Source: Amphiscolops sp. MND2022
Lineage: Eukaryota
NCBI GenBank assembly: GCA_964187785.1
Contig: OZ076409.1
Location: forward strand, 26,786,001 to 26,850,000
DNA: 64,000 nt
Reading direction: 5' to 3'
Position numbers and translations under genes: made by a program. Under the pieces are notes generated by a model. That model was not told where the DNA came from. It ran no database searches and was given only the letters and a program-made list of their open reading frames with translations. How positions within the stretch are numbered: the first letter of the stretch is position 1; each line of letters begins with the position of its first letter. Of the stretch, positions 9,696 through 53,622 are shown one piece after another.

Positions 9696-11365
9696 TGTCG
9701 CATCCACCAAGATGCGATGGTTCCGTAGTGCAGCAGTGAAAAGGAACTCCTGAAGAGACTCAACAATAAAACATTTCAAACCTTTTAAAACTCATTTCAA
9801 TGGTATTTTCACATCGTCATGTAAATTATTTGTTTGCTTATATCGGTGAAGTTCTCTCTGGACTACTCCTTAAGTCCATAAATGATGCTTAACTTCTTTA
9901 AATCTTCTTCATAAACAACACATGTGCATAAAAATCACATAAGCATGATCAATCTACGATTTTTGATGTCACATTATGCGTCATCGTGCTACAATTAGGA
10001 TTGTGAATATACGGTGTTAAACGCTTTTCAAATATCAAAGATGAGTCATTGTACGTAAAATGGTTGTTTGAATATGCGTTATTATGCATCAAATGATTTT
10101 TCTGTATGCGTCATTGTACGTTTGAGTATACATTAAGATACGTTTTAAATTACTAGAGTATGCGGTAACATACCTTTTTATCAATTGTAACATGCATCAC
10201 TATACGGTACTACTAGTGCTGTATATGCATTAACATACGTTTATTGAAATATCATACGTATCGAATTGTGCCGTATATGCATTACTATCCGGATGTGAGG
10301 AAGATGCTCACGTGCGTTGTACGTCTTTGTGCGGTTCCAGGTCCACCGCATATGCGGGATTATGCGTTTTTCAGCAAAAGGTGTAGTTTTGAACGTCATG
10401 CAATTATACATCATTAGATAGCACTAGAGGTGTTTAATATACCATTTTACAGTATTTCTCTAGGGTCTTACAACCGATTAAACAAACGTATGTCATTATG
10501 GGAATGATATAAATAGAATTACGTGATTTGACGTTATCCTATTTTCGTGTTTTCCAGGACTACATGATACTTGTAAAAATGACTGTCATTCTTTTATATT
10601 TTGAAAAGGGGATTTCCTAAATGCAAGACACAATTGAAATAACCTCTCCAAAGTGCAGTTGTATCAATTTCTCCAGGCTCTTGCTAATACTATCAACATT
10701 TTCATTGCTTTCTCCAAGATTGGATTTTCCGTGCCGAGAACATAATTCAAATTCTTCCCCAGCAAACATAACTTGTTTTCTACTGAGTGAAATGGGAAAT
10801 AAGAGGAGTCGAAGATCAAGGAGATTAGCAACCCCATCTCCTGAGAGAGAAACGAGCGAAACTAGAGTTGACTCTCCAGGAACAGGTAATATAACTTTAA
10901 CTAATTCTAATCTAAATGTTCAAGAAAGTTTAGGTCGATTGAACTCGGAAAACCAACTAAGAGAACCCAGTCAGATTAGTGATGAGATACAAGTTTGGAC
11001 TCAGATTGTTGAGCGGAAAAATACTGAAAGAATAGAGAAAATGAGAGAAGAAATGGACAATAAACTAGAAGCAATTTTGAAGGAGATAAAACACAATAAG
11101 GGTGCTTCAATGACGACAAACCCAAGGTCTGATATAAATGAGATACAAGAACCACAACCATCGGGATCCAGGATAGATCCGCCTATAGGAGTTCACGCAT
11201 CTAATAGAGAAAATTCAGATTCTGAAAACGACGATTATCCTCTTAAAGCTTCTAAAACGAAGGATCCCAAACATCCTACTAAACCTTTGTTCCGAAGTGA
11301 ATCGGATATAGACATAAATATATATTCTGACGAAGAATCAGAAGCAGAAATAGAGGATTATCACA
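9696..11365 (+). repeat. 5' LTR (1670 bp)
   Basis: Runs TGTCGCATCC...GATTATCACA. Differs from 24821-26492 by roughly 11 substitutions and one 2-bp indel (counted by eye). TATAAA at 10508. Confidence 0.97.
9970..10300. promoter_or_regulatory. U3 array of bipartite YATGCG-N4-YRTRCG motifs with 32-33-bp phasing (repeated in the 3' LTR at ~25095-25430)
   Basis: Motif starts at 9975, 10008, 10040, 10073, 10105, then 10127, 10159, 10191, 10224. The regulatory role is inferred. Confidence 0.6.
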
Positions 11366-11383
11366 TGGTGACAGGAGCCAACC
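11366..11383 (+). other. Primer-binding site
   Basis: TGGTGACAGGAG... directly follows the LTR-terminal CA. It resembles tRNA-Leu-type PBSs; the identity of the tRNA is uncertain. Confidence 0.75.
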
Positions 11384-12466
11384 GACAGCTCCATAGACAA
11401 AGCTCACAGAAGCTAAACGACACATTAGGATCCCGCGCAGACCAAAACTCGTCAAATATGACACCGAAGCCTCTCGATCCAGTAAATCAGATTGCATTAG
11501 CAATCGAAAAATTGGCAAACAAAAATTCTCCACAGTCATTATTTCATCCTAAAAACACACTCACCTTCAATGGGAAAAATGAGAAAAATGAGAAATTCGA
11601 ATACTTTGAAGACTTATTCCACACAACACTTCGAATGCAACCAAACCTAACAGAGGAAATGAAAATCAACCATTTTCACGCACATCTAAGAGGTTTGGCT
11701 CTCAAAACATTCAAAAACATACAAAGAACCCCAAATACAATCTTAGATGATATTCTAAAGGTCTTCCGCAGAAAGTACGTCAAACCAGAGTCTAGCGCAT
11801 CTGCCAAGCATCGATTCAACAGACTCTCATTTGACCCAGAGAACCAAAAACTCCCGGATTTCCTGGAAGAACTCCAAGAAAGTGCCGATAAAGCGTTTGG
11901 GGACAACGCCCATCAAATGATAGAGAATCTACTCTACGCAAAAATGCCCCCACATCTCAAAAAGTCCATCAACCAAGCCTACCTCGAAAATGGAACATAC
12001 GATCAGATAGTTAAACATCTCGAAAGAGAGATGGAACTTAACCGTCTCGAAGCAGACGAACCCCTAGTTAAAACCCAAATGACCGCTACTAAAAAAGAAC
12101 AAAACACTGAGAAAACTAACAAAAAACCGAACGAAAAAACCAAAAAACAAACGCCTAAAACAGTACTGACAAAACACTCAAAAATAACCAATGCCGTTGT
12201 TGCAAAGAGGCAGGACACATGATGGCCGATTGCCCCAAACTAGCAAAACGACGAAAACTTGAAGAAGACCCGGATGCGGCAAAGTGTGAAAACTGCAACA
12301 CACCAGGTCACGAGGAAGAAAATTGCTACTTTGGCGCCAACATGGAAAATCGCTCACCTAAGTGGAATCTCACTGAAGCCCAAAAGAAAGTTATTGAAGA
12401 ATACAAACAAGCTCGAAAACCGATAAAACCAAAAATCGAACGCGCACAACAATCCACTTCGAAGGA

Positions 12467-12473
12467 TTTAAAC
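12467..12473 (+). other. -1 ribosomal frameshift slippery heptamer (T TTA AAC)
   Basis: The gag frame ends GAT TTA AAC TAG. The -1 frame TTT AAA CTA GAA TTG is the pol frame of ORF 12479-14236. Confidence 0.85.
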
Positions 12474-15400
12474 TAGAATTGCCACGCCTTTGCAAAAAAC
12501 CACTACAAAAATTAGGCCCTGCAGATGTCTGGCAGCATCAGCCGAGCCCAAAACCTACAAAAATCATAAACAATAAAAATGATTCAACAACACAAGAAAC
12601 TCAACCTGAAGATATATATGAACTCTTACATGACGCACCAGACAACTATTTTACACAACAACCAACTTGTCCCACAACTGACTTAACCCCAGAATCCCCA
12701 CAATCACCAAAAAATTATGTCCTAATTAAAACTTCTGGCAATGATGAAAAACAACCTCTTCTCAATGAAGACCTCACCAAACACATACAATTTCACAAGG
12801 AACGAAATTTGTCATATCTTCCGATCTCAACCTCCTTGACATTAAAACGAAAACGCCATATGTACTATATCCCAATGGACTTCGAAAAGCTTACACTTGA
12901 TGGTCTTATTGATACCGGAGCCCTTACAAGTGCGATCTCCGAACAAGATCTTAATAAAATAAAGTTGTTAGCAAATGAAGCACTTAAAGAAACTGGTCCC
13001 CCACCAAACTTCCAAATCATGGTGGCCAATGGACAACTAGAAGTTCCCATTGGTACGGTACTACTGGAATTCGAAGTGGCTGATTTCATGCTAAAAGAAA
13101 ATTTCATCATCATGAAAAATCTACCGAACCCACTGATAGGATTGTGCTTCCTCCGCAGAAACAATGCAATTTTTGATGTCAACCAAAGCATCTTAACATT
13201 TCCCTATCTGTCAATGCAACTTCAACCCGATACCCAAACAGCAATACGCCAAGCAACACCATTATTTGCCGAAAACACCTATACCTTACAACCAGGCGAA
13301 GCCCTTGCAATAGCAAGCAGAATGCCTCACCTAATGGACCATAATGCCACTGGCATAGTTACCCCATCACAACAATACGAAAATCATGATAGCATTTTCA
13401 TTACTGCATCACTCAGCACTGTTAACAACAATGCTATCGGTTATCAAATTATCAACTTTTCAGAATTACCCCATACAATCACAATGGATACCCATTTAGC
13501 AGATTTTAAGATACTAACCCCAGAGCAAATCAAGCATATACAACCAGTTGATCCAGCGTTACTATCGTTCATGATACAATACGAGGAAACAACTGAAGTC
13601 CACATAAATGAACTCCTTAAAGTACCACAACAACATTCAGACCAAGAAACATACTGGTTCCCTACATCTGAAGAACGAGGCGACCCTACAACATACACCC
13701 CAATTCAGCAACGTATATATAATGAACTTCTCGAACTCGAAGAACTCGAGAAACTAAACCCACATGATAGTGAAACCTCCAGAACAGCATTTCTCTCACA
13801 CTTTGATTGGTCTGACACAACACTCAGCTCAGATGAACGCAAAGCAATTGAAGAAATCCTCATTGAGTTTCACGATATTTTTGCCAGACATCGTTTTGAT
13901 ATTGGCATAAATCGTGAATTCAAAGTAAAACTCACACCCAACGATGACAGACCTGCTTATAGCCAAAGTCTACCGACTCCAATTAACCTCAAAGATGATA
14001 TCACTGTGGAACTCGCACTTCTACACAAGTATGGCATCATAACAACTCTACCCTTCTCAAAATACGCAAGCCCAATCTTTGCACAACGCAAACCTAACGG
14101 GCGACTCAGACTTCTAGTCGACCTACGAAAAATCAACAACTTAATCACAGAAGATTACGCCAACAACAACCACCCGGTAAGCACATTATCGGATGCAGCC
14201 CAACATATGGCGGGAAAAAACTTTTCTGTAAACTAGACTGCTCCCAGGCTTACCACTGCCTCCAAATGGCAGATTATCAGTCCATACAGATGCTCGCTTT
14301 TAACTTTGCAAGCAGAACATTCGCATACCGTAGGCTTGCCCAGGGTCTCAGCAGATCCCTTTCAGCATTTTCGAGTTTTATGAGAGACTACCTAGACAAA
14401 GCGATTAAAGCAGACCAATGTGCCCAATATGTCGATGACATAGGCATAGCAGCCAACGACACCAAACAGTTGTGTCTTAACATCAAAACAGTGTTTGAAT
14501 GCATCCGCAATGCAGGATTAAAACTCTCAATGTCTAAATGTCATTTCGGAGTCAAACAAGTCGACTTTCTGGGACGTACAATCACCCCAGATGGAGTCGC
14601 CCCACAATCCGACAAGGTTAAAGACTTCCTCTCAAAGCTTCGTTTTCCTAAATCAAAAAAGGCATTACAAAGGTATATCGGATTTTTGAATTATTACCGA
14701 AACTACATTCCTCGCCTTTCAGAACGTCTAACCCCGTTTTTTAAACTCCTCAAAGAAACTTCCAAGTTCTATGTACCAACAAATTTAGTCGACGACTTCA
14801 CAAGTTTAAACAAACTTCTCGAAAATTCCTGCCAACTGGCACTGAAACAACCACTAAAACACAAACAGCTCATAGTCATGTCTGATGCTAGTTTTACTGC
14901 TGCGGGCTATGCAATCATGACAGAAGATGACCCGAACCAGAAGTTACAATCCAAACGAAAAACCTATGCACCCATAGCGTTTGGATCCAAAACATTCAAT
15001 CCCACACAAACAAAGATGTCAATCTACGCAAAAGAATTCCTTTCCATATACTTCGCATTTGTGGAATTTGGACACCTCATGTGGGGCAACACCTTCCCGG
15101 TAATCGTGTTTATCGACAATCGCTCGGTAACCCGATTCTTTCAAACAAAAATGATTCCTCCAGCACTCTGGAACGCCTGCGATTACGTATTGCAATATAA
15201 TTTTGTCATTGCCCACGTTGCTGGTTCCTTGAATACTGCAGCAGATTTTTTATCCAGAACAGAAGTAAACCCAAAAGAAAAGCTAGAAATGACTATCCGC
15301 AATGACATCTACACAAAGGCAATAGAAGTCCACATCCAATCATCAGGTATCGTAGAAGAAGAACAAATCTACATTCTCCCCGATGATGAAATAGACGAGA

Positions 15401-17334
15401 ATCAACTATGGGAAGAAAAACAAAATGTACGTACACAAGCTCGAAATGAAACCCACAACGAACCAGAAAATGACATCTCTGAACTACAACATTTCCACAA
15501 ACCCACATCGGGTTTGATCTCGGTATCATCAGGATACTTCAGAGACAATGCAAGGATTCGCCTCGAACAAAATAATGACATTGTTCTCAGAAATCTCAGA
15601 GCGAAAATAGAGGGCGAACCCTTTGACGAAAACGATTTAGCATCTGACTATCGATACCACCACTATCTGCAAAACATAACACGGATTGAGATAAAAAAAG
15701 AAGTCCTTACCAGGAAATACTATACGGATACTGGAACAGTATCACATTACCAAATTCTCCTTCCGATTCAACTTGTAGACGAATTCCTCCAAGCCCTACA
15801 TGGTCATAATTCAAACCACCCAGGTATCACGAAAATGATACAAGAAGCAAGACAAAAATATTACTATCCTTGTATGGCAAAGTACATAAAAAAGTGGGTC
15901 AGTAACTGTCAAACCTGCATCCAAACCAAACGTATTAACAATGACCTCCTAAGGACAGAACTCCTTAATTGTCCAGAATGGGATCTAGGTCCGGAAGACA
16001 TCCTACAGATGGATATCCTACCAAACCTCCCTCCGAGCGGAGGATATGATCATATTATCACAGCCATAGATGTCTTCTCGAGGTATTTGTTCGCATATCC
16101 CGTAACTCGTATCACTGCAACAGCAGTATCAAGAGTCGTCATGGATATATTATGCAAACACACCTACCTACCAACGACAATAATCACGGATTTAGGAACC
16201 CAGTTCAACGCACAGGTGACTCAAGAAATTGCAGCAGTACTAGGAATTTAACTTAAACGTGCCACAATGAAACATGCCCAAACAATAGGACTCCTCGAGA
16301 GAACCCATGCCTCAGTGAAAACACATCTGAAAGCTGCAACAGGCGAATTCAGAAATAATTGGCATAAATATCTCCCATTGGCAGTCCTCAACCACAATAC
16401 AACATACCATGCATCACTCGGCTGTGAACCTTCACGAGTTTTCCATGGTAGAATACCACATAATATCCTCGACTACAAACTCGGATATAACCCTAACCCA
16501 CGATACCAACCACAGTCAGATGTGGCAGAAGAAATTCAAAAACGAATGAAAATCCTCTTGGATCAAACTAAGAAGAACATTATGCAATCGTATCTCAAAT
16601 ACAAGGCTTACTATGATCGAAAAGCCAAAGCAGCTCCGCTTGAAACGACGGACTATTGTTACATTCTTAACCCAAAAGCAGATACTCAAGCGACAAAAAT
16701 ACCATTCCGAGAATTCAGATGGTGTGGTCCATATAAAGTAGAAAAAGTACTCCCTAACAATAATTATATTGTCCGGAGACTTGGAACTAACAAAACGCAA
16801 TTACTACACAGGATCCGTTTACGGAAATTCACCCCGCAAGCCCCATTAGCAGACATTTTCGTTCGCGAAACTGATTGGCAAAAAGATGACCAAATGCCTA
16901 TAGCAAATGATGACCTATATGCCCAATCATGGAACACAAATTTTGGGTCTAACCCGTTCGAAGATGGTCCTTCAGAATTCACACAAGACACTGAAGACGT
17001 TGAATATACTCCAATTCAAACACCTGATGATAACCGCCCTCCCTCCCCAGGATCTTCAAAAAATAAGGAGGGGAGCCCAGTGGAACAGACCACTGAACCA
17101 AATCAAGATTACGACAACCATGAAAATGAAATACCACAACACATCAATGAAGATAATCAAAATACCCAAAAAACTTAAGAAAAACCAAATAGTACACCAG
17201 TTGACGATATCCCAAAAACCCCAGAAAATTCACAAAATACCCCATTGCAAGAAGAACCCATAAATACTCGTGGCGAAAAATATAACCTACGCCCCAACCC
17301 CAACCCAAACTTTTCACACTCGTACAGATACTAA
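12467..17334 (+). pseudogene. pol: Pol polyprotein (protease, RT, RNase H, integrase), disrupted
   Basis: LIDTGA protease; RLLVDLRKIN and YVDD RT; IVMSDAS RNase H; HHCC plus D-D-E integrase; terminal YNLRP. Lesions: a frameshift in the A-run at ~14215 and in-frame TAA codons at 16249 and 17176. Confidence 0.95.
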
Positions 17335-17547
17335 AAACAAATCACTGACAAATTTTCCTTTAAACTCGAGGACTTGAAACTCATAATACTATCCTCCTTG
17401 TCAGCATTCCAAAGAAATTGCAATAAATACATACAAACGAAGATAACGTAAATCAAGTTTATAAAACGAGTTAACAGAGTCTGAAAGTTCAAAATTGCAT
17501 CAATCCTTCTTTTCTCTGGTCTTCTTGACTTTTCCCTTCCTACCTTT

Positions 17548-20500
17548 TTATACTCCGGGCTCCATCAGTGTAGCAGGAGTCACTTTAATAGGCATTAGTT
17601 TGGGAGACAGCCCAGATCCAGGTGAACTAGTGGTGCTCGACGAATGACTTACACTGGGTGTAGTAGCTTCCAGAAATATAGGCAAACCTTCACTCAGCAG
17701 CACAGACCTCTTGTAAGCCGCCTCGAATTTCTCTAACATAGATGACATCCGGACCCCACTTCCACGCAAAAAACTCCAGATGGAAAACTTCTTGTCGTTG
17801 ATTAATTCACGTCCTCGCCCAAGCAATCGGAAGATTCTTCCCACCGATTTAGAGTCTCCATACAGACTAGAGACGTTAGGCACAGTGACATAAGATAACT
17901 GCAAGCTCCTAACCACTGATTCAAAGGCATCATGGTCAAATTTTAACTCTGGAATAGAAACCTCGAATTTGGCAGGGATTGTGATCACAGGCGGTAGACA
18001 CAAGCAAGCAACACGAAATACACGTGATAGCTCAGTCCGACTCTGCATCTCATAATGAGAACCTAAGTACAAAACCCAATCACATCGGGGGACATTGTCG
18101 TTAGCTCGTAATTTAGTAACAAAGGAGCGGTACTGGCTCACTGCCTTGGTCTTGTCCCCTGCTGAAATTACACCTGTAGAGACGAAGTAACTTGTAAGAT
18201 CCTCAATAGCAATGGTATAATTTTGTTCCGAACCATCCAGAATAACAGCATGGTCAAAACAAGAAAGTCCTCGAAGCAGTGTTGACTTTAAAATATCATG
18301 GGACAACAATATACTGCAAAATGACTTGCAGAAAGCCATGGATTGTTCAACAAATCGACTAGGACGAGGCAGCCGACTGGAGGTAACGAGATAGTGGAAA
18401 TCAGGATTAAGAGCAAACTCAGCTGGAGTTTTCAGAGGTAATTCAGTGCCCGACAAATCGATCTTCAAATATGAATCCCAATTCGAATTGTCTCCAAGGA
18501 AACTGTCCGGTAGCAAGTTTTGTAACTGACTATACACAAAGACGGTGAATTGGTTGAAAATCCTGAAACCTTGATTCATTTCTCCTTGTACCTCGGCGAA
18601 CGCGAAGTTGTCTGAAACAAACTTATGAATACAGCTATACAATTTTTAGCATGAAATATAGAAGTGTGTACACTTCACTATACCGTTCAAAAACTTCAAC
18701 TATGAGGTGTTACGCGAAAATCCTAGCTATTTACTCGGTATCCCCGCAAAAAATCTCAGAAATATATACCGCAAAATGCGAGATGTTGCCATTGTGTATA
18801 CGGTAATACACAAATTTTTTGTGATTCCATTCTCACAACGTTTCAAATTTGTTTATGCGCAACCATACGGAAAAGGCTAGTTCTTATGCGCCAATATGCG
18901 TGTTTTCCGTGTCATTCAACAAGCAATTACAATAGCATTATCACAAGACAATTAAGCGTCACCAAGCGAATTAGAGAAGAATGCATATACGTAGTTCTAC
19001 GGAACTCAAACCCTCACCATTCGTTAACATACGGAACTTGGAATCTGATTATGCGGCGCTGTGCGGAACTTGGAATCTGATTATGCGGCGCTGTGCGGAA
19101 CTTGGAATCTGATTATGCGGCGCTGTGCGGAACTTGGAATCTGATTATGCGGCGCTGTGCGGAATTTGTATTCTGGTTACGCAGTATTATCCGGAATTTG
19201 AATTCTATATATGCAGTACTACGCGGAATTCGAAATACAGTCGTACGCTACTATGCGGAATTCGAACTACAGTCGTACGCTACTATGCGGAATGAAATGG
19301 AGAGTATATAAAGTTGTGCAAAATTCAGATTTGAGCTGGACGGCGTAATGAAAGACATGACATGACGTATATGCGCTGAAGTACGGAATTTAGAAACCCG
19401 AGAGTGAAACATGTAGATCCCAATATGGAATTAAAAACCACACGTATTTGGGCTACGGAACTAACTTGCGACCTTCGCGACAGAGGAAGACTTTACGAAT
19501 AGATACCAGGGTTTACAAAACAAACAAGATAGTCTTAAATACAAATCATGGAAAGCATTTGAAAAATAAGAGGGAAATAAAAGTTCACTAACAGTGATCA
19601 ATGGCACATCAGATTACGAATAAACGCGCTAAGTACGCGGTGTCCAATCGGAAACACTCATCTAGGGAAGTAGGCTATAACACAAACGAAAAGTAACCTA
19701 TTTGGAAGACGTTTTTCGGAAGTGGGTGTGAAATTTCAACACTTACTTTTCTCATGTGAAATCGGTATTCCGGCATTCGTGACACCTGTGCCAGGTGGTC
19801 CTTGATTCTGTCCCAATTAGTGGAAAAACATTCAATCAAAGCAGATGCTTCAGCCAGGTTGTACTCCAGAGTTAATATGGACTGAAAAAAGAAATTGGTC
19901 AACGACACTCATGGCTTGTTTTGTGTTAGAAACTCGGAAGTAAAACACTACCTTGTGAAGGACAGGCAGTGAATGGACCCAATCCCGATCGAGTGCAGTG
20001 CGTAATTTTAGGAGCAGGTAATCGATAATTGTTCGGAAATCGTGACGCTCAATTATTTTGGCAGTTGGGGTAGCCAAACACTTTTCAAACTCAGCAGGAC
20101 TAAAGCTGTTGACAATGCTGGGTTTCGGATCACAATTCAGTACAGAGATTAAACAACTGCTAAGCTTCTCTTCCATATCAACCAAACAAATGCAATTGGG
20201 TGGAGACTCAAATAAACTCAAGAGAGAAGATATCAAGATGAGAATTTTCTTAGGGACTAGCACGCCCCGAGGACCTGTCCCAATACAAACTCGCTGGAAA
20301 ATGTTCCCAGACCAAAAGGATAAGAAGAGGAAAGAGTGGGTCGGGGATCGTTGCAGGACTAGCGAGTAATTTTCAGAAGAAGTAATGTGGGTAATGCAAT
20401 AACTGATGAGTCCACGGAACATATATACCAGCATTCCCTGAAACATAGGCTAGTGGTCAATTTTTGATCATAGTTAGAAGGGGTGAATGTGCAAAAGATG

Positions 20501-22237
20501 AGGTTTAGTTACTATATGTAAATTGCAAAATGTAGTAAATACTTACGAAGATTCGTGAGCTCTCCCAAATGAAGGGCTGGAAATCACTGGTCGTAGAAGT
20601 ATGTTGCAAAATCTCGTCGTGAATTCCGATTAGACTAGCAAGGGGTCCTCCATGTTTCAACCCAAATTCCAAAACCCGCAATTGAGCCAACACAATCTCG
20701 ACCGGACTGGAGTCACCTTTTATGTCTGGTAGCCTGTCTTGCCCCACAAGCAACCTTCGAGGACCAAGTTGGGGTGGTATTGGGTAAGTGTCCTTAGCTG
20801 TCCTTTTTGCTTCTTGTAAAGCAATACCTTGCAACTCTACCTCTTCACGGTCATAAAGGGCCAAACCTGGTGTTTCCATCCGGATTCTATGTTCTTTTAC
20901 GAGATGGGATTCTGTCTTGTAGTGCGATATCATTTCCAAGGGTCCTCGGCTCATTAGGGATAATTCAAGTTTGCACACCCTACACCACCATTTGTAAGGG
21001 GTTTTTTCTTTGTCAATCGGCCCAGTTGCAGAAAATTTCAATACTGGGTGTTTTCTGAACATACTTTCAGTCAAGCAATACCGAGGCCTTGGTCGCTTGG
21101 CTGGTCTCAGAGGATTTTCTTCGGGATCAAATTCGGTTGTGTTCCCCCGCTCAAGGGCGCCTCGATCGGTACTAGTTGGGCAATGTGGAGAGAGTTCTGT
21201 GCTGGGTCCAGGTGGATTTTCAACGACTGAGACAGTAAGACCGGGGGACAGAACGTTTTCCCCTGACAAGAATGATTGGGGAATGCGACTCAACACGTTG
21301 GTTAAAGCTATGACCTCATTTCGAGTAATGCTGATGCTGGCATTGGTCACTGGTGGTGAGGAAGTATTGAGCTCCGCCGACAAAGATTGAGGAGCTTGGA
21401 AAATCTCGTTTGTGTCCCCCATAAGAGTAGTTTGTCCCATCGGTAAATGGTCGCTGATAAATGAGTCAATTCGTTGATCCACAGGTAAGTACTGTGAAAA
21501 TCGGGGGGAATTAGTCCGTGATGAAATAGCAGCAGCAAGACTATCCATGAGTTGAGAAGTGAATGTATCCTGTAAGGCAGAAGTGGAAGCAATAGGAGGT
21601 GTAGCGCTTTGGGTTTCGTGAGGCTGTTCGCCCGCTTCAGGATTTTCCTCAGAATTTTCAGGAAGAACACTGCATTCTTGGGTTCCGAAGGGGTTCTGTG
21701 TGTCCACAACGGCTTCTTGTTCTACTCCTTCTTGTGCAGGGCGGACAAGAGTTGGAGGTGGGATGCTGTATACGGAAGGCTCAGACTGATTAGGCGAAAC
21801 AACTTGGAGGGGAGCATAAACCTTCTCAGGAGACGGCTGAGGCGATTTCTCCACGATCGCGAGTTTACCTAAAATGATTGGTTTATAAATCCAAACAGAC
21901 AAATTGAAATTTTTGACTTAGATCTGCTGTGGAAACCTTTTTACCGGACGCGGTGATTTGAATAGAAAAAGCGGAAGTCAAACTAATTTGAGACCGGAAG
22001 TAGAAATATTTCCAAGACAAAATTCTGATCTGAGTATTCTCTTGATCGCAAAATCGGTGAATTCATAGTCCGGCCAACTATGTTATTCTTAACAAATTCG
22101 AAACTGGAAGAAATGAACCAAGACAAAAGTTCAAACTCACCTGGAGAATCAGCTGTCGGGGACTTGTATCCCCAAGATCGGGTCCTCATTCTGGAAACGA
22201 ACTCCTGGGAAAGACTCCGTCCTCTATTGTCACTCAT
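17548..22237 (-). CDS. Antisense spliced accessory gene: hAT-transposase-derived protein with a BED-like zinc finger
   Basis: Predicted exons 22237-22141, 21868-20547, 20437-19952, 19881-19747, unresolved small exon(s) at ~19675-19465, and a last exon at ~18611-17548. The first three joins are phase-compatible GT-AG introns. Motifs: KWWCRVCK...SHYKTESH, and LLRGLSCFD...AVSQYRSF...ELSRVFRVACLCL. Confidence 0.72.
19000..19290. repeat. 32-bp minisatellite inside the predicted intron of the antisense gene
   Basis: Four perfect copies of CGGAACTTGGAATCTGATTATGCGGCGCTGTG (19032-19159), with in-phase degenerate units at 19000, 19160, 19192, 19224 and 19256. Confidence 0.95.
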
Positions 22238-22559
22238 GATGCTGAATTGGAAACCCTCAGTGATCTCCAATGACCCAATTAATAATTTAATGGAATGAGG
22301 TTTGGAGGACAAACTGAATAGACTAATAAAAGGACTAGAGTAGAATTTTATAAAAGTATAAATGTGTATTAAAACTGACAAAACCAATATAGGAAGGCGT
22401 GGCGATCTAAACGAAAGGCAAAGAGCAAATGCGCTCAGAAATTGTACTGGAATTGGTAGTACGCTCTAATATGATTGGCCAATTAGAATGTCAGTCACTT
22501 CTGCCAGAGTGTCCGATTACGTAATTGGCATATTAACAACACATGTGAAAGCAAAAGTA

Positions 22560-22980
22560 AATAGACCTGCGGTAATATACAAACTTACTACATACGCTAA
22601 TACGGTGATCTGCAAAATACCAGCATTCAATGTACAGCAACATGCGAACTTTGGATTGCAATTATGCGCAATTATGCGGATTCACAAATGGACAATATAC
22701 AGCAACATGCGGACTTTAGATTGCAATCACACGCAATTATGCGGATTCACAAATGGACAATATACAGCAACATACGTTTTTCAGATTACAACTATGCGTA
22801 ACTATGCGGATTTACGGATGAACAATATGCTGCAAAATGCGGATTTGCAGTTGCAATTATACGTAAATACACAAATTTACAGATGAGCAATATGCGGCTG
22901 CACATGTACTTGTGACTTACAAACATACGGCAATATGCGGAAATATGATTGTAGTCTATGCGTCAATATGCGGAATAAAG
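22560..22980. repeat. Degenerate 32-bp repeat array with a 64-bp higher-order period, between the divergent accessory genes
   Basis: TATGCG-CAAT-TATGCG units. The block GCAATTATGCGGATTCACAAATGGACAATATACAGCAACAT is duplicated 64 bp apart. Confidence 0.8.
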
Positions 22981-23835
22981 AGAAAAAGAGCACGTGCTGG
23001 TATGCAGTATGAAAGCGAAGAAGAATTGAATGACACGTAATCATTTGAGGAATTAAAACAAACAACTTCACTCTGACGATCGAATGAGTCATGGCCAGCA
23101 CGCGGTAGCATGCGGATCCTAGTATTGATGTATAAGCAGTCTTAAGTACTTTGGAAGAAAGAGATTGTGGGACGGCGTCCGAAGCAATATACACAGAGAT
23201 GCATATTAAAATGCATTGAGTCAACCCGAATGGATAGACCTCTACCAATCTACCTCGTTGTGAGAGGCTATCACAGGTACCTATCTTAAAAGTTTGTGCC
23301 TTTTCAAAACGCGGGACATCGAATGATATACTATGTCGCGATCATGTGATCTTTAAAAAAAAACTTGGTAAAACATTTAAACATTCATGCAATATGTTCA
23401 GCCTTGATATGAGTTTCATTGACGCTTCTAAATAAAATTATATTGAGCAGTTAATTCATTCATTTTTTGTGGCATCCTAGGTGAAGATATTTGTTTACAT
23501 CATATTTAAATGTAACTGAAACAAAACTAGAAAGATCAAAAGGAAACTGCCGTTGAAAGATATGACAAACGAAGTCACACTCATTTTGTTTATTTACATA
23601 TGTGGAAGAAACCAAAACCTAACCCCTCTTTCATACGGTGACCCGCCACCTACATCCCATATAAGGTGTTGCTAGACTCACGAAATCATGACACCCAATT
23701 TTTTGGCGGGGTTCCGTCTAAATCAAGTCAAACTGAAAAGAAGATTCACCATATGGTCTTTACAATTTCATAAATCAGTCGCCTTGTAAAACTTTTGAAA
23801 ACCTGAAAAGCTAAATAGTTCTCCGCAAATCAAAA

Positions 23836-24864
23836 ATGAACAAGCTTCAATTCGACATCGATGAAGACTCACTATACTCCCCTATCTCCCCTGATGTGGT
23901 GGACATCTCGAGCGGGTCAGAAGGTGAGTTCTCCATTGCCCCCGGAGACGTGACCCAACTCAACGATAGATTCCGTATAGACACAACTGGGAGCAATTTA
24001 ATGTCAGCATTTATGGGAGCGGCAACAGCCACTTTGTACCCTGATACAGAAATGTCGCCAAGACAGGACCCAGCAACGATCGCATCTGGAACTCAGTTGG
24101 AGAGAGAACTTATGGACCTAATTGAAGTCCCTCAGAACGGACTAATGGAATCTCCAGGTTCGTTTGAAGACAGCGAGTTTGAGGAGGGGAATCTCTTCCC
24201 ATGGACCATGGGCGTTGGCCCCGAAAGAACTACAAACAACTATGGTCGTCCCGCCGCAAGGGTCCTCCCTACTCTGAGGACAAATTCCAGCGACAGTGGG
24301 ATCTTACCCCGTCCAATCCCGATCTTTCCGCCAAATTACAGGCAAGAACAAACAGGCTTTCAACAACGAACAACAAGGGAGCCAATGGAACAAGAGGTAC
24401 GAAATAATACAATCCCACAACAAAGAACAACGCGAGAAAACTTCACAGGGTTTAATTTATCCCCAATGCTGTTCCCCCTCAACATTAGTGGATTAGACAG
24501 CGGAACTCAGCCTTTGGAACAGTTGATGCAACCCACTGTTCAACTGGGGTTTCCGTTCAACACGACCCACAGCACGAACTCACTCCTAATTCCGGCCCAA
24601 GAAAGACATAGCATCCGGTTGATACCCACTGTTATGGCCAACGTCGCAGGATATTGTGAACTCTGCGGAAAATGCTATGATCAAAGCGCTCTGGAGACTC
24701 TGGGAGAGTATCTGGTTGCAACGGAGTACGAGGGTGAAACAGTCAAGGAAAGGACAATCAGATCAAGGGCATTCATCCACGGGTTCGAAGCAGCATTGTT
24801 CCTTTTTAAAAATGCGGGACTGTCGCATCCACCAAGATGCGATGGTTCCGTAGTGCAGCAGTGA
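23836..24864 (+). CDS. Accessory sense ORF (342 aa) of unknown function: acidic, disordered N-terminus and a C-terminal CxxC helical domain
   Basis: Intact ORF with ATG in an AAAAATG context. It reads through the PPT and stops 44 nt inside the 3' LTR; AATAAA follows at 24890. Confidence 0.7.
   Translation: MNKLQFDIDEDSLYSPISPDVVDISSGSEGEFSIAPGDVTQLNDRFRIDTTGSNLMSAFMGAATATLYPDTEMSPRQDPATIASGTQLERELMDLIEVPQNGLMESPGSFEDSEFEEGNLFPWTMGVGPERTTNNYGRPAARVLPTLRTNSSDSGILPRPIPIFPPNYRQEQTGFQQRTTREPMEQEVRNNTIPQQRTTRENFTGFNLSPMLFPLNISGLDSGTQPLEQLMQPTVQLGFPFNTTHSTNSLLIPAQERHSIRLIPTVMANVAGYCELCGKCYDQSALETLGEYLVATEYEGETVKERTIRSRAFIHGFEAALFLFKNAGLSHPPRCDGSVVQQ
24808..24820 (+). other. Degenerate polypurine tract
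   Basis: AAAAATGCGGGAC lies immediately before the 3' LTR TG and overlaps the coding sequence of ORF 23836-24864. Confidence 0.5.
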
Positions 24865-26492
24865 AAAGGAACTCCTGAAGAGACTCAACAATAAAACATT
24901 TCAAACCTTTTAAAACTCATTTCAATGGTATTTTCACATCGTCATGTAAATTATTTGTTTGCTTATATCGGTGAAGTTCTCTCTGAACTACTCCTTAAGT
25001 CCATAAATGATGCTTAACTTCTTTAAACCTTCTTCATAAACAACACATGTGCATAAAAATCACATAAGCATGATCAATCTACGATTTTTGATGTCACATT
25101 ATGCGTCATCGTGCTACAATTAGGATTGTGAATATACGGTGTTAAACGCTTTTCAAATATCAAAGATGAGTCATTGTACGTAAAATGGTTGTTTGAATAT
25201 GCGTTATTATGCATCAAATGATTTTTCTGTATGCGTCATTATACGTTTGAGTATACATTAAGATACGTTTTAAATTACTAGAGTATGCGGTAACATACCT
25301 TTTTATCAATTGTAACATGCATCACTATACGGTACTACTAGTGCTGTATATGCATTAACATACGTTTTTATTGAAATATCATACGGATCGAATTGTGCCG
25401 TATATGCATTACTATCCGGATGTGAGGAAGATGCTCACGTGCGTTGTACGTCTTTGTGCGGTTCCAGGTCCACCGCATATGCGGGATTATGCGTTTTTCA
25501 GCAAAAGGTGTAGTTTTGAACGTCATGCAATTATACATCATTAGATAGCACTAGAGGTGTTTAATATACCATTTTACAGTATTTCTCTAGGGTCTTACGA
25601 CCGATTAAACAAACGTATGTCATTATGGGAATGATATAAATAGAATTACGTGATTTGACGTTATCCTATTTTTGTGTTTTCCAGGACTACATGATACTTG
25701 TAAAAATGACTGTCATTCTTTTATATTTTGAAAAGGGGATTTCCTAAATGCAAGACACAATTGAAATAACCTCTCCAAAGTGCAGTTGTATCAATTTCTC
25801 CAGGCTCTTGCTAATACTATCAACATTTTCATTGCTTTCTCCAAGATTGGATTTTCCGTGCCGAGAACATAATTCAAATTCTTCCCCAGCAAACATAACT
25901 TGTTTTCTACTGAGTGAAATGGGAAATAAGAGGAGTCGAAGATCAAGGAGATTAGCAACCCCATCTCCTGAGAGAGAAACGAGCGAAACTAGAGTTGACT
26001 CTCCAGGAACAGGTAATATAACTTTAACTAATTCTAACCTAAATGTTCAAGAAAGTTTAGGTGGATTGAACTCGGAAAACCAACTAAGAGAACCCAGTCA
26101 GATTAGTGATGAGATACAAGTTTGGACTCAGATTGTTGAGCGGAAAAATACTGAAAGAATAGAGAAAATGAGAGAAGAAATGGACAATAAACTAGAAGCA
26201 ATTTTGAAGGAGATAAAACACAATAAGGGTGCTTCAATGACGACAAACCCAAGGTCTGATATAAATGAGATACAAGAACCACAACCATCGGGATCCAGGA
26301 TAGATCCGCCTATAGGAGTTCACGCATGTAATAGAGAAAATTCAGATTCTGAAAACGACGATTATCCTCTTGAAGCTTCTAAAACGAAGGATCCCAAACA
26401 TCCTACTAAACCCTTGTTCCGAAGTGAATCGGATATAGACATAAATATATATTCTGACGAAGAATCAGAAGCAGAAATAGAGGATTATCACA
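24821..26492 (+). repeat. 3' LTR (1672 bp)
   Basis: Near-identical to 9696-11365 and followed by the TSD GTAAA. Confidence 0.97.
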
Positions 26493-33724: not shown

Positions 33725-34904
33725 CATGTACAGGCAAAAGCGCCCCTGACAAAAGCGCCCTAGTCAAAACCGCCCCTGACAAAAGCGCCCCAGTCAAAAG
33801 CGCCCATTTTACACAGACAAAAGCGCCCCAGACAAAAGCGCCCCAACCAGATTCGTCTTGCGAATAATTGTAATGATTTCACACCTAATTTCTATTAACT
33901 GCACATAATTAATTGGCCGTACGCGTAGCCGGATATTACCGAGGGTGACAATTTCACACGTGTTTAAAAGCAGTCAACTTGTTAATTCAGAAGACGCTTT
34001 TCTGAGGCAAGCTGATTCATCTGTTAGGAAATTCATTGCAACTACCACCCAAATGGAAATCACCGCTCTTAAAAGCAATAAAAACCAAGACATTATGACC
34101 CACTGTGGGTATTGATACAGGAAAGCAAGGGACCTCAAAACGGTACGGAGTCATGGAGGTGTTTGAATTAAAACGGCCGGGGCCGAATTAACGTTGGCAA
34201 CGAGATCAAAAGTGTTAGTGAGCATTGCCAAGAGCCACAAACCGAAAAAGTAGAAGAGAAATTATTCCGTGCTGAACTTAAAACACGAGCAGTGTTAACC
34301 GAAGAAAAACCCAAGAGTGTTATTTTGGCAGCTCAGCGATTTCTTACCGTCGAGTCAGGACCGACCTTTTGAGATGAACTTTTGTTTTTTTGTTGTTGTT
34401 ATTGTGTCTTGTTGAAAAAAATTGACCAAAATTTCAAACTATCCCGTGCATGTCTAAAACTGTGCATGCTACAGCTCTGAGAATTTGTCACCATAAAGAG
34501 AGGTTTTTTAAATAAAAAATTCTTCTCTCCCACCCCAACCCGGAACCCTGATAACGGGGGGGGGGTGTTTCCGGGTCATCACATTGAATGAGACTTTTTC
34601 ATGAAAAATTTCCATGTTAGTTTCGAACTCGATGACTAATAGTCAACAACTAAAGTTTTGACCACTGAGCTATCCAGTCTTAATAGGATGAGTTTTGAAT
34701 TGACTTATAAAATGAGTCATTTGATTCAAACAATTTCATTACGTAATCGACATTTCAATAACGAGCATTGAACCAAGACACTTAATTAGTTCGTGAGACA
34801 AAATCAAGGCAATTAAATCCTGAGACGCATTCAATTGGGGCGCTTTTGACTTGGGCGCTTTTGACTGGGGCGCTTTTGTCTGGGGCGCTTTTGTCTAGGT
34901 AACC
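33725..34904 (+). mobile_element. Internally deleted Mutator-like (MULE) DNA transposon
   Basis: 9-bp TSD TTCAAAAAC (33716-33724 and 34905-34913). Inverted subterminal arrays of 15-bp CAAAAGCGCCCC units. Internal FLYWCH remnant. Confidence 0.8.
34053..34372 (+). pseudogene. FLYWCH zinc-finger N-terminus of a MULE transposase
   Basis: MEITALKSNKNQDIMTHCGY*YRKARDLK/GTESWRCLN*NGRGRI...SEHCQEP...AELKTRA, with stops and a frameshift. Confidence 0.7.
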
Positions 34905-36773: not shown

Positions 36774-39700
36774 TCAGTATTTTCAATATTTTACCGTCTT
36801 TCGGCGATAATTTTTACATGAACATTATACCAAAAAATTTTTCTGATTTTTCTCAATCCCATGATAGTTTTTGTTTGTAGAACTCACCAAGAAAACAAAA
36901 ATGGGAGCACTTTTCCGTTCAGTAAAATTGGAAATACATGTATTGAGATAGGAATTTCAGACTTACACTTGGTAAAACTCCCATCAATATACATTTTCCA
37001 AAAATATCCAAAATCAAATTTCATCTTTGTTTTCGAGATTTGAGTGTATCTGCAAGGCAAAATTTATCAAAAAATATTTATTGGATCACATATATTTTCT
37101 CAAAAATTAGCAATTTCAAATATTTTCTTCTCAAAATCACATGTTTCTATCTTCGGAAACAGTGATGGTTTAAATTTCGAACAAAAACCATGGTATTCAT
37201 AGCAAAAATTCAAGAATCTTTTGTTTTTACCAAATTGAACCATATCGAATAGTTTTGGAGATATGAGACTGTAAAATTAGCCTTTTTGAGCAGCCAGGTC
37301 GCATTTTTTCTTCACACAACTGTACAACAAACAACTACTGACAAGCAACTTCGAAAAGTTTGAAATTTAAAATTGAAAGTGAACCCGGAAAAAATACAAA
37401 ATTGATTGAGTCATAATCGTCAAACTTGGTTTTGATTACTCCTCAAAACTACTAATTTTGTAAAATTGAGAAATCGGGAATAACTGTATATCCATTGTGC
37501 AATTCAGCAATTTAATAAGATAGTACAAAAGGTTGAAATTTCAATATTTCACAATGATTATGCAGTTATTTCCTTAAGGACTAGATGTTATACCGACAAT
37601 ATCTGAGTCACACAGACCAATAAAGTTTGTATTACCTGTTGAGAGCCGTGATATGTTGCGCCTTGAGTTATCTCAGCGACCATATGTTTTTGTGCCAATA
37701 ACTGACAAAATTTACACGTAAAAATTCCATAAAATTCCAAAAAATTTAGCTCTTTCTACCTGTTCTAGATTCGTGCTATACATTCCTTTGGAAAAACTTT
37801 AGATCTATCCTTCCAGAAGTCTCCTAAGTAGCTCATTGATTTGTAATTTGAGCTCTATTGATATTCATACAAAACAAAGCTCTCTGAAAATAGAACCCAA
37901 GTTGCAAAAGACTCAATTTTATTGGCATTTCGACACTTTTAATTATCGGCACTTGTCAAAACGAGTTCATTTGTTTCGTTTAAATATGTATTTGAAAAAG
38001 TACAAATACAGATGCTATGAACCTCATTGCTTTGTTGTTGAAATCTGTGGAACTTACAAAATAGTTTTTGAAAAACTATTTTGTGAGTATAAATTTGAAA
38101 CATATGGCTTTGAGTATGACTTTGACTCTGATATGGAATATGACCAGGAAGTGTAAATTAGGATGCATACATTTCTTTAACCAAATGACCTTACACTGAG
38201 TTTTAATCTCAAACTTGGAAAACAGTTACCGAATAACAAGACAGAAACCTCTCAAATCGGTGCCCACGAAGAAAGCTCAATAAACGGCAAACTTTTCAAA
38301 ATTGTTAGCGATGAATTGTTTTCATAAAAAAACCGAATAATCTATGTGCCAAGAAAACCAAGTGAGGCCCTTTGAGCTCAAAAGTGTTTTTTTTTCAGCT
38401 TAAAATGTCAAAAAAAAACATAAAGGACAACCTTTTAATGAAATTGACAATGCCAAAATCTAGACAATTCCAAAAAGAACAAATGAGGAACAATTTGCCG
38501 TATTGTAGTTTTGTATATCATGTAAAAAAGAAAACTCAAAAGGAGGACTTTTCTGCTATCATTAGTACTCCGTAGATCTTAGGCTGACAATTGTAAAAGG
38601 TGTACGTTTCCGAATGAAAATTGTCATCACAAAATACTTGCCATTGTAAGAGTCGGGCACTTTTTCTTACAAAAAGCAGCGAATGGCAACGCATCAATTT
38701 GACGAACTTGAGATTTCTGCCAAGGAGATTTTTAAGGAATTTAGACTTTAAGGAAAACTTCCTGTTCGTGGTATACAGCCAGGTGTATTTTTCTGAACGA
38801 GCTCGAAACAATTGAAACTATAGTTTGTAGTAGGATTGCGATTCAATGGTTTTGAAATGTGAGAAAGACTATTGAAGGAGCCTAACTATTTGAAGAAGAA
38901 GCTATTCTCTTTGTAAACAAACACAATCTTTCTCAAAATCAAAACTAGAAAAAAGTTTGGTTTCACCTTAGATCAGTCGGACATTCCAAAAACTATTTTT
39001 TTCTGGAGAAGACATTTTTTACCGAACGAAAACTACCTCAACGAACCAGCAGTCTTTCAAAGAAGTAACAATGAGTTCGAAAACAGAATTCAGGAAAAAT
39101 ATAAAAGTGTATGCAGATATCATTAAAACTGAAAAGAACTAATCAGAAACAGCTAAGGTCGGTAGACGGCCTAAAGATCAAGATACACAGAAGATATTTT
39201 AAATCTACCCAGGTCCATTTTTGTGAGCGTTCAGAAAAATTTCACAGAGGCCAATAACATTCCAATTCTAGAAAGGATTCATCTTGACCGAAACATCGAA
39301 AAAAAACAAAAATAACTGAAAGAATAAAAAATCCGGTAAAAATTTGATTTTCGAAAAAAATATGTAGCGCATTGCCGAAACACTCAGGCTTGCAGAACGC
39401 TTTTTGTTTCCTAAAGACATCAGCAAACTAAATAAGGAAACTCATCGGTGATATGAAATATATTTTCCCGAAAAGTCGCACAGTACTGAAAAAACTTCAA
39501 AGAAGTGTCCCTTGGACAAAATCCAGCTTTTCAAATGGAACAAGTTTGACCAGCGGAAGATTCGAAACATTGAACTTCTCTTTCCCAGATCCTGTTTCCC
39601 GCCTCTCAGTATTTTCAATATTTTACCGTCTTTCGGCGATAATTTTTACATGAACATTTTACCAAAAAATTTTTCTGATTTTTCTCAATCCCATGATAGT

Positions 39701-42700
39701 TTTTGTTTGTAGAACTCACCAAGAAAACAAAAATGGGAGCACTTTTCCGTTCAGTAAAATTGGAAATACATGTATTGAGATAGGAATTTCAGACTTACAC
39801 TTGGTAAAACTCCCATCAATATACATTTTCCAAAAATATCCAAAATCAAATTTCATCTTTGTTTCCGAGAGATTTGAGTGTATCTGCAAGGCAAAATTTA
39901 TCAAAAAATATTTATTGGATCACTGATATTTTCTCAAAAATTAGCAATTTCAAATATTTTCTTCTCAAAATCACATGTTTCTATCTTCGGAAACAGTGAT
40001 GGTTTAATTTTCGAACAAAAACCATGGTATTCATAGCAAAAATTCAAGAATCTTTTGTTTTTACCAAATTGAACCATATCGAATAGTTTTGGAGATATGA
40101 GACTGTAAAATTAGCCTTTTTGAGCAGCCAGGTCGCATTCTTTCTTCACACAACTGTACAACAAACAAATGCTGACATGCAACTTCGAAAAGTTTGAAAT
40201 TTAAAATTTAAAGTGAACCCGGAAAAAATACAAAATTGATTGAGTCATAATCGTCAAACTTGGTTTTGATTACTCCTCAAAACTACTAATTTTGTAAAAT
40301 TGAGAAATCGGGAATAACTGTATATCCATTGTGCAATTCAGCAATTTAATAAGATAGTACAAAAGGTTGAAATTTCAGTATTTCACAATGATTATGCAGT
40401 TATTTCCTTAAGGACTAGATGTTATACCGACAATATCTGAGTCACACAGACCAATAAAGTTTGTATTACCCGTTGAGCGCCGTGATATGTTGCGCCTTGA
40501 GTTATCTCAGCGACCATATGTTTTTGTGCCAATAACGGACAAAATTTACACGTAAAAATTCCATAAAATTCCAAAAAATTTAGCTCTTTCTATCTGTTCT
40601 AGATTCGTGCTATACATTCCTTTGGAAAAACTTTAGATCTATCCTTCCAGAAGTCTCCTAAGTAGCTCATTGATTTGTAATTTGAGCTCTATTGATATTC
40701 ATACAAAACAAAGCTCTCTGAAAACAGAACCCAAGTTGCAAAAGACTCAATTTTATTGGCATTTCGACACTTTTAATTATCGGCACTTGTCAAAACGAGT
40801 TCATTTGTTTCGTTCAAATATGTATTTGAAAAAGTACAAATACAGATGCTATGAACCTCATTGCTTTGTTGTTGAAATCTGTGGAACTTACAAAATAGTT
40901 TTTGAAAAACTATTTTGTGAGTATAAATTTGAAACATATGGCTTTGAGTATGACTTTGACTCTGATATGGAATATGACCAGGAAGTGTAAATTAGGATGC
41001 ATACATTTCTTTAACCAAATGACCTTACACTGAGTTTTAATCTCAAACTTGGAAAACAGTTACCGAATAACAAGACAGAAACCTCTCAAATCGGTGCCCA
41101 CGCTGAAAGCTCAATAAACGGCAAACTTTTCAAAATTGTTAGCGATGAATTGTTTTCATAAAAAAAAACCGAATAATCTATGTGCCAAGAAAACCAAGTG
41201 AGGCCCTTTGAGCTCAAAAGGGTTTTTTTCAGCATAAAATGTCAAAAAAAAACATAGGAGAACCTTTTAATGAAATTGAAAATGCCAAAAAAACTAGACA
41301 ATGCCAAAAAAAAACAAATGAGGAACCATTTGCCGTATTGTAGTTTTGTATATCATGTAAAAAAGAAAACTCAAAAGGAGGACCTTTCGGCTATAATTAG
41401 TACTCCGTAGATCTTAGGCTGACAATTGTAAAAGGTGTACGTTTCAGAATAAAAATTGTCATCACAAAATATTTGCCATTGTAAGAGTCGGGCACTTTTT
41501 CTTACAAAAAGCAGCGAATGAAAACGCATCAAGTTGACGAACTTGAGATTTCTGCCAAGGAGAACTTTCCATTTAGATTTTAAGGAAAACTTCCTGTTCG
41601 TGGTATACAGCCAGGTGTATTTTTCTGAACGAGCTCGAAACAATTGAAACTATAGTTCGTAGTAGGATTGCGATTCAATGGTTTTGAAATGTGAGAAAGA
41701 CTATTGAAGGAGACTTACTATTTGAAGAAGAGGCTATTCTCTTTGTAAACAAACACAATCTTTCTCAAAATCAAAACTAGGAAAAAGTTTGGTTTCACCT
41801 TAGATCAGTCGGACATTCCAAAAACTATTTTTTTCTGGAGAAGACATTTTTTACCGAACGAAAACTACCTCAACGAACCAGCAGTCTTTCAAAGAAGTAA
41901 CAATGAGTTCGAAAACAGAATTCAGGAAAAATATAAAAGTGTATGCAGATATCATTAAAATTGAAAAGAACAAGTCAGAAACAGCTAAGGTCGGTAGACG
42001 GCCTAAAGATCAAGATACACAGAAGATATTTTAAATCTACCCAGGTCCAGTTTTGTGAGCGTTCAGAAAAATTTCACAGAGGCCAATAACATTCCAATTC
42101 TAGAAAGGATTCATCTTGACCGAAACATCGAAAAAAAAACAAATTAACTGAAAGAATAAAAAATCCGGTAAAAAATTGATTTTCGAAAAAAATATGTAGC
42201 GCATTGCCGAAACACTCAGGCTTGCAGAACGCTTTTTGTTTCCTAAAGACATTAGCAAACTAAATAAGAAAACTCTTCGGTGATATGAAATATATTTTCC
42301 CGAAAAGTTGCACAGTACTGAAAAAACTTCAAAGAAGTGTCCCTTGGACCAAATCCAGCTTTTCAAATGGAACAAGTTTGACCAGCGGAAGATTCGAAAC
42401 ATTGAACTTCTCTTTCCCAGCTCCTGTTTCCCGCCTCTCAGTATTTTCAATATTTTACCGTCTTTCGGCGATAATTTTTACATGAACATTTTACCAAAAA
42501 ATTTTTCTGATTTTTCTCAATCCCATGATAGTTTTTGTTTATAGAACTCACCAAGAAAACAAAAATGAGAGCACTTTTCCGTTCAGTAAAATTGGAAATA
42601 CATGTATTGAGATAGGAATTTCAGACTTACACTTGGTAAAACTCCCATCAATATACATTTTCCAAAAATATCCAAAATCAAATTTCATCTTTGTTTCCGA

Positions 42701-53495: not shown

Positions 53496-53622
53496 GTTGC
53501 GCATCTGGGTGGGCTTTGCTTTGCTTTCTTTTACTGGTTACGTTTTACAACATTTGTTTCGAGTTCTGGATTCCAACTTGAACATATATTCGTAGAGTTG
53601 GATATTATACAAGGATTTCATT

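Follow-up and report, generated by a model that had tools for sequence, protein, structure and literature searches.

A predicted six-exon antisense gene in a Ty3/gypsy retrotransposon of Amphiscolops, and its possible descent from a DNA transposase

The DNA considered here is a 64,000-nt stretch of the genome of Amphiscolops sp. MND2022 (contig OZ076409.1, positions 26,786,001 to 26,850,000), referred to as the window, and its feature of interest is a multi-exon gene on the antisense strand of a long terminal repeat (LTR) retrotransposon. The host element is complete and occupies positions 9696 to 26492 on the plus strand (16,797 bp), with TG...CA ends and a GTAAA target-site duplication. Its 5′ LTR (9696 to 11365, plus) and 3′ LTR (24821 to 26492, plus) are 99.22% identical over 1,672 columns in self-comparison, and a primer-binding-site-like sequence that begins TGG lies at 11366 to 11381 (plus), the same in 11/11 elements. 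The region for gag, protease (PR), reverse transcriptase (RT), RNase H (RH) along with integrase (INT) runs from 10621 to 17178 (plus) and is split into four frames, i.e. broken, in the window copy. Pfam recognises RVT_1 (1.4e-18), RT_RNaseH (1.8e-13), Integrase_H2C2 (1.1e-15) and rve (5.3e-10), with gag and protease matches only below the cut-off, and the domain order is the gag-PR-RT-RH-INT of Ty3/gypsy. An earlier note on this DNA had named an LTR retrotransposon as the host of the gene; given the paired LTRs, the target duplication and the domain order, it is one, of the Ty3/gypsy class.

Between pol and the 3′ LTR, on the minus strand, lies a predicted gene with six exons and five GT-AG introns. 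Its exon lengths of 97, 1,322, 486, 135, 82 and 1,112 nt add up to 3,234 nt, or 1,077 codons plus a stop. Searches of the same genome (1.07 Gb), whose figures are lower bounds, returned at least 73 DNA matches, at least 115 matches to exon 6 (115/115 scored, 55–100% identity) and at least 150 to exon 3 (150/150). The copies were located through the antisense gene itself, so elements lacking the gene fall outside these counts. Fifty were picked across the 55–100% range and exon boundaries projected onto them from protein alignments; the fractions that follow are the copies keeping each splice site among those in which it could be placed. Exon 1 (22141 to 22237, 97 nt) carries the ATG start and a phase-1 donor, and is followed by intron 1 (21869 to 22140, 272 nt, GT..AG, phase 1; donor 41/43, acceptor 35/38) and by exon 2 (20547 to 21868, 1,322 nt). 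Intron 2 (20438 to 20546, 109 nt, phase 0; donor 45/50, acceptor 46/50) leads to exon 3 (19952 to 20437, 486 nt), the site of a predicted RNase H-like core, and intron 3 (19882 to 19951, 70 nt, phase 0; donor 47/50, acceptor 48/49) leads to exon 4 (19747 to 19881, 135 nt). The remainder consists of intron 4 (19675 to 19746, 72 nt; donor 47/49, acceptor 48/49), the newly identified exon 5 (19593 to 19674, 82 nt), intron 5 (18612 to 19592, 981 nt; donor 47/49, acceptor 48/50), which contains a 32-nt tandem repeat, and exon 6 (17500 to 18611), predicted to encode a helical domain, then a Ser-rich stretch, then a basic C-terminal tail.

The first three of these introns lie exactly where the earlier note had put them, with the lengths and phases that it gave, and the further donor that it quoted at 19746 is present. 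The last acceptor ends at 18612. That donor is in phase 0 and this acceptor in phase 1, so a direct join between them is impossible, and we rejected a single splice from 19746 to 18612 on this ground. Exon 5, a block lying between AG and GTTAGT, is conserved when 17 natural copies are aligned; its phase is 0 on entry and 1 on exit, which closes the gap. The lesion that had been suspected somewhere between 19746 and ~18611 proved real: it is an in-frame stop at 19611–19609, within the overlooked exon, where 48/49 other placed copies are open. Every splice site quoted in the note stands, while its count of four junctions gives way to five introns, the acceptor of intron 4 having been missed along with exon 5. 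The end of the gene, which it had placed at 17548, is a second premature stop (17550–17548), 16 codons short of the family-type stop at 17502–17500; exon 6 measures 364–370 codons, corresponding to window position 17500, in 36/50 other copies. With two premature stops in the antisense gene and a broken gag-pol, the window copy is dead.

Variants of this structure occur. Intron 2 is in frame and free of stops in locus L071 (G000:C1:91163500-91173400) and in P0180, such that exons 2 and 3 form one frame of 660–718 codons. We considered an intronless processed copy and rejected it: the lone long frame (660 codons) among the 150 exon 3 matches keeps intron 2, and P0180 does likewise. Internal duplications of parts of the antisense gene were seen at L062, L080 and L036.

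The check that the earlier note had proposed, conservation of GT and AG among family copies, gives a clear result. In the 50 other copies the expected dinucleotide is kept at 452/477 placed sites (23/500 were unplaceable), 11 of the 25 that are missing have a GT or AG shifted by one base, and ten further copies keep 74/77 placed sites. Judged from these alignments, such conservation is far above chance. Introns 1 to 5 vary in length across the 50 copies (257–300, 71–150, 59–84, 68–74 and 555–1,080 nt, in all three length classes), and exons 3 to 5 stay mostly constant at 486, 135 and 82 nt. A strict test requiring the start, all ten sites and open exons is passed by 14/50 copies, 12 being only partly testable. 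Selection was assessed through the ratio of nonsynonymous to synonymous substitution (dN/dS) in 18 copies (153 pairs), with medians taken over pairs with measurable dS above 0.1, most other pairs being saturated. These medians were 0.027 for the end of exon 2 (11 pairs), 0.059 for exon 3 (15), 0.115 for exon 4 (34), 0.037 for exon 5 (22) and 0.054 for exon 6 (8), beside 0.020 for integrase (63), and they indicate purifying selection on every region tested, that is, the end of exon 2 and exons 3 to 6. Nonsynonymous variation (pN) is ~0.25 for the antisense gene against 0.04 for integrase, meaning that the accessory protein evolves faster. The structure that the note had proposed, an antisense multi-exon gene of about 1,000 residues, is thus one that the family conserves.

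Could the open frames and GT/AG sites be by-products of a conserved RNA element or reading frame on the sense strand? Conserved blocks in intron 1 might be cited in favour of this. Across the 18 copies, however, variation by codon position follows 3>1>2 in the minus frame, this pattern and the phase-matched boundaries hold only in that frame, and no sense frame in the region exceeds 124–130 codons. We regard the probability of such an explanation as negligible. The blocks in intron 1 (21869 to 22140) are conserved between families that are otherwise only 75–80% alike, and possibly represent an RNA or regulatory element on either strand.

The antisense gene has moved together with its introns. 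Of the copies analysed with their flanks, 10/10 are elements of 16.1–16.9 kb with LTR identities of 98.8–99.9% and 5-bp target duplications; gag and pol are unbroken in six of them, four of which also pass the strict six-exon test. Since introns are present in all ten of these complete, target-duplicated insertions, introns survive retrotransposition. The proposal that the orientation lets the gene travel intact is borne out to this extent, although the window copy itself is broken. Integrase lies downstream on the opposite strand at 51/51 loci and at 8/10 more (59/61); of the two exceptions, one retains the second open reading frame (ORF) of the element and the other has an internal duplication. 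Almost certainly, what saves the introns is that reverse transcription would copy a genomic RNA of the opposite strand, on which the spliceosome never sees them. The distribution of splice motifs between pol and the 3′ LTR of seven elements is in keeping with this: GTDAGT, the donor motif, was counted 18 times in sense (29.4 expected) and 54 times in antisense (34.2 expected), and TTTYAG, the acceptor motif, 68 times in antisense (53.8 expected).

The antisense gene and the backbone of the element have separate histories. The gag-pol tiles of the window copy (11696 to 16696) are 96–99% identical to a family whose antisense region is only ~66–75% identical, and its antisense region is 91–98% identical to a second family whose gag-pol tiles are 79–89% identical; the switch lies near 16.7–17.2 kb. 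A wider comparison used 42/51 copies, nine being excluded for short integrase stretches or duplication. Among pairs with integrase DNA more than 95% identical, exon 6 is less than 80% identical in 32/89, and among pairs with exon 6 more than 95% identical, integrase is less than 88% identical in 21/76. Four integrase groups each occur with two or three different cassette groups, and the trees of integrase and exon 6 conflict between strongly supported branches. We conclude from these sequence comparisons that the antisense cassette appears to be swapped among pol backbones by recombination, for which template switching in co-packaged RNAs is a likely route. The combination found in the window is present at seven loci, so it has spread after the exchange.

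An own promoter for the gene is likely. A minus-strand region at 22397 to 22478 contains CCAAT boxes and a conserved CGCCACGC block; CCAATY is found within 400 nt of the antisense start in 42/44 copies and CGCCACGC in 25/44. At the other end, past the antisense stop and just after pol, a motif at 17422 to 17430 reads GTATTTA on the minus strand and AATAAA on the plus strand. It is present in 31/36 copies and in 0/36 in a control stretch, with the sense AATAAA in 23/36, and may be the 3′-end signal of the antisense mRNA or of a short gag-pol mRNA.

What kind of protein would the gene encode? The product of exon 2 has a variable low-complexity N-terminal part, a basic KRPRPR stretch, a CxxC..HxxxxH motif, which we take to be a BED-like zinc finger, and a helical bundle; basic stretches thus occur both in exon 2 and at the C-terminus of the protein. 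The C, H, H pattern of the finger is near-invariant; the zf-BED model of Pfam gave no match, and the structure model has low confidence there. Pfam likewise gave no match for TRP28/Transposase_28 (PF04195) in the gene or its family members, none for bZIP in the gene, and none for the dimerisation domain PF05699 in the protein. A sequence search of the PDB found nothing below E=1, and the ESM Atlas held no usable match for exon 6 or exon 3. Searching the same genome for DUF4371 gave 0 matches, with the control likewise silent. Out of 1.84 billion proteins, a profile of exon 6 picked up 296 with E≤0.001, the aligned subset reaching down to 16% identity, and the ten clusters inspected were unnamed environmental records. 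No longer, fused homologues of exon 6 were found among 4,654 candidates of 619–2,000 residues, which is weak evidence, and none of 491 pattern matches in JGI metagenomes was confirmed. A likeness, seen by eye, of exon 5 to the N-terminal part of P0132 and P0144 was dropped when it gained no hidden Markov model score.

A resemblance to hAT transposases had been noted before any folding, and the predicted structures point the same way. The exon 6 model (mean predicted local distance difference test score, pLDDT, 64.9) had a single match of Z≥5 among 48,161 chains, the Hermes transposase (Z 5.5, root-mean-square deviation (rmsd) 6.4, 168 residues aligned, Hermes residues 368–609). A second model, made from a natural stretch that takes in exon 3 and the last part of exon 2, has a pLDDT of 59.9 with a core of 80–94 and RNase H topology. 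In a first pass the exon 3 match to Hermes had Z 5.5 over 164 residues (141–394), and after re-alignment it reached Z 5.9 (rmsd 8.6, 199 aligned, residues 84–394), beside Z 6.4 for ISCth4 (rmsd 6.5, 138 aligned). The two models thus fall on Hermes 84–394 and 368–609, i.e. the matches are collinear. At the positions expected for catalysis, which we placed using the catalytic positions of Hermes as we take them to be, Asp plus Glu do not exceed 0.14 near strand 1 or 0.24 in the region of the C-terminal motif and stand at 0.26 where strand 4 ends, and no CxxH follows strand 5. The antisense protein probably descends, on the strength of these models, from a DNA transposase of the hAT or Mutator type, and if that origin holds it is likely, by analogy, to be catalytically dead.

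On balance, and with no great assurance, we lean towards an internally promoted, spliced minus-strand gene whose product would be a dead, DDE-transposase-like nuclear regulator of its own element. The gene would be transcribed from its internal promoter and then spliced. An intron-bearing, insertion-domain DDE transposon, hAT or Mutator, would have inserted backwards into the element, and its transposase, having lost its catalytic residues, would have been retained for its zinc finger and protein-binding surfaces; this course of events we consider reasonably probable. Foremost among the possible roles of the protein is nuclear DNA binding that would promote transcription of the element, shield it from silencing or steer integration, a proposal that to our minds could equally well be right or wrong.

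A number of results weigh against this interpretation, and several would suit a spliced gene that goes back to a host gene, taken up by the element, or to some unrelated protein with an RNase H fold, its Hermes matches merely reflecting common folds. All fold Z-scores are below 8, a level that the tool itself calls common by chance; the exon 3 match to Hermes is level with matches to integrases and sugar kinases; and with Foldseek neither model had a match at E≤0.001. Profile-profile comparison by hhalign with 15 hAT frames of the same genome found none (probability at most 0.14), and members of exon 2 and exon 6 had no relevant match in Pfam. Confidence in the models is moderate (mean pLDDT 65 and 60), with the zinc-finger region poorly predicted, and the catalytic positions were set by analogy, without residue-level superposition. 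As for the gene itself, its splicing is deduced from conservation rather than direct observation, TTTYAG is also enriched on the sense strand (42 against 28.9 expected in the seven elements), and the seven elements are related, so their strand bias is supporting and not independent evidence. The U3 tiles of the window copy are 73–83% identical to both parents; the cassette is therefore not tied to one LTR type in this copy, which disfavours strict LTR-specific transactivation. Set against a non-transposase origin are the collinearity on Hermes of two independent models from non-overlapping exons, the fact that exon 3 aligns over the greatest length with transposases of the insertion-domain kind (Hermes 164, P element 153 and ISCth4 148, against ~80 for integrases), and an N-terminal CxxC..HxxxxH finger in exon 2 whose position presumably matches that of hAT and MULE transposases. 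We consider such an origin unlikely, though it is the alternative that we take most seriously. A search of a viral fold library returned nothing at E≤0.001.

A second question is whether the gene serves the element at all: it could instead be a nested DNA transposon that is still active, or a mere hitch-hiking passenger. The transposase-like fold would fit either of these, as would the many broken copies, that of the window included. The position and orientation are, however, fixed in 59/61 loci, there are no conserved catalytic acids, dN/dS is far below 1 between families whose synonymous sites are near saturation, and no inverted pair at least 40 nt long surrounds the cassette among the 10 pairs listed. 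Such a gene strikes us as very improbable. A third alternative makes the protein a structural or enzymatic partner in the life cycle (import of the pre-integration complex, integrase cofactor or RNA export) and not a chromatin regulator. Its basic stretches and the strong purifying selection are compatible with this, and PMC7264820 proposes like roles for plant antisense ORFs. The free exchange of the cassette between integrase variants argues against tight, integrase-specific pairing; this argument is weak, given that the integrase proteins are mostly 89–99% identical in the large majority of copies. We judge a life-cycle partner to be improbable, and continue to favour the disarmed transposase acting as nuclear regulator.

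Other features of the element and the window may be noted. Within the stretch from 10621 to 11381, the gag frame begins inside the LTR, which holds its first ~745 nt, and crosses the primer-binding site; this is likewise the case in 10/10 flanked copies, so an N-terminal frame of gag is present in each 3′ LTR and each solo LTR. A second accessory ORF (23815 to 24864, plus; 349 codons) stands head-to-head with the antisense gene and enters the 3′ LTR. It has 345–373 codons in 10/10 flanked copies, with a conserved acidic N-terminal motif and a C-terminal CxxC domain finishing within that LTR, and no Pfam match. Tandem repeats of 32 nt (seven units, 18968 to 19255, in intron 5) and 65 nt (four units, 22628 to 22887, upstream of the gene) are both rich in a GCGGA..TATGCG-like word and are possibly binding sites for a protein of the element itself. 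Elsewhere in the window, a 2.83-kb unit is present in three tandem copies of 97–98% identity (36774 to 45271), and three 1.7-kb LTR-like repeats with two GC-richer 5-kb units between or after them (46750 to 58673), showing a weak match to the gag-like PNMA (E=0.056), are likely a tandem non-autonomous LTR element. Pao/BEL fragments (62203 to 63458, minus) contain Peptidase_A17 (E=3.3e-07) and an integrase zinc domain; the peptidase match suggests an animal source, BEL/Pao elements occurring mostly in animals. Elements resembling miniature inverted-repeat transposable elements, with long terminal inverted repeats, lie at 59915 to 60866 and 33748 to 34899.

Plant elements and Boty are established examples of antisense ORFs lying between pol and the 3′ LTR (PMC7264820, PMC11963269, PMC8220671, PMC8365987, PMC4227169). 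Those of plant Ty3/gypsy elements, termed aORF-3R, include maize Grande gene23, rice RIRE2 and the Retand TRP28/PF04195 ORF, and gene23 is described as nuclear and as having its own upstream promoter (PMC7264820, PMC11963269). Our gene shares with them the antisense orientation, the position between pol and the 3′ LTR, the presence in most copies and tandem repeats in the region. It differs in having five introns and ~1,077 codons, whereas the available portions of these papers describe no introns (PMC7264820, PMC11963269). One of them calls for a search for spliced antisense transcripts, and states that a nested origin is not backed by any similarity of aORF-3R to other transposable elements (PMC7264820). 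Unlike the Retand ORFs, our gene has no TRP28 match, and its predicted fold points to a DNA transposase instead. The brtn gene of Boty-like Ty3/gypsy elements in Botrytis cinerea and Sclerotinia (Zhao et al. 2011) resembles ours in being family-specific, antisense and between pol and the 3′ LTR. It is reportedly a small gene with a spliced intron. Boty is a fungal chromovirus, unlike the element here, and we suggest no relation in sequence; to our knowledge, cassette swapping has not been described for brtn.

Spliced antisense genes are established in deltaretroviruses, namely hbz of HTLV-1 and aph of HTLV-2/3/4 (PMC10186651), which are like our gene in being spliced minus-strand genes kept in a reverse-transcribing element. 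HBZ is a nuclear 31-kDa protein of bZIP type, driven by the 3′ LTR, that regulates transcription of its own element (PMC10186651). Here, in contrast, the promoter is likely to lie inside the element, ~2.3 kb away from the LTR; a further ORF separates the start codon from the 3′ LTR, which is 2.6 kb off, and the product would be about four times larger. By its predicted fold the protein would resemble the Hermes (hAT) and Mutator/IS256 (ISCth4) transposases in the order of its parts, a zinc-finger motif followed by a helical bundle, an RNase H core and a large helical domain; unlike these, it has no conserved catalytic acids or CxxH, shows no detectable sequence similarity to them and is carried by a retrotransposon. 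Accessory and anti-silencing factors are described for other elements, such as VANC of VANDAL and, in Gypsy and MULE elements, the plant mobile domain (PMC13547354, PMC5418596). These are comparable as lineage-specific accessory proteins outpacing the core enzymes; we found no relation in sequence. In literature searched without subscription papers, Repbase and supplements, no large multi-intron, transposase-derived or exchanged antisense gene came to light in an animal gypsy element. What would be new relative to the known antisense genes is the size of the gene together with its number of introns, the likely transposase origin and the exchange between backbones.

Where the extra antisense genes of LTR retrotransposons come from, and what they do, are questions that PMC7264820 treats as open. 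A candidate origin, from a nested DNA transposon, is provided by the family described here, in which five introns and 3.2 kb of coding sequence have been kept over repeated rounds of retrotransposition. A protein of this kind would act in trans, and would hence be swappable like a retroviral env module; that a class II transposase gene was captured and disarmed and now serves anti-silencing or targeting as a DNA-binding module, traded between lineages as env is, remains a doubtful, speculative extension. Annotation based on ORFs overlooks such genes, of which this family alone has at least 150 matches in the genome. In natural recombinants one and the same pol stands beside widely different cassettes; comparisons among them may thus reveal what the antisense protein does.

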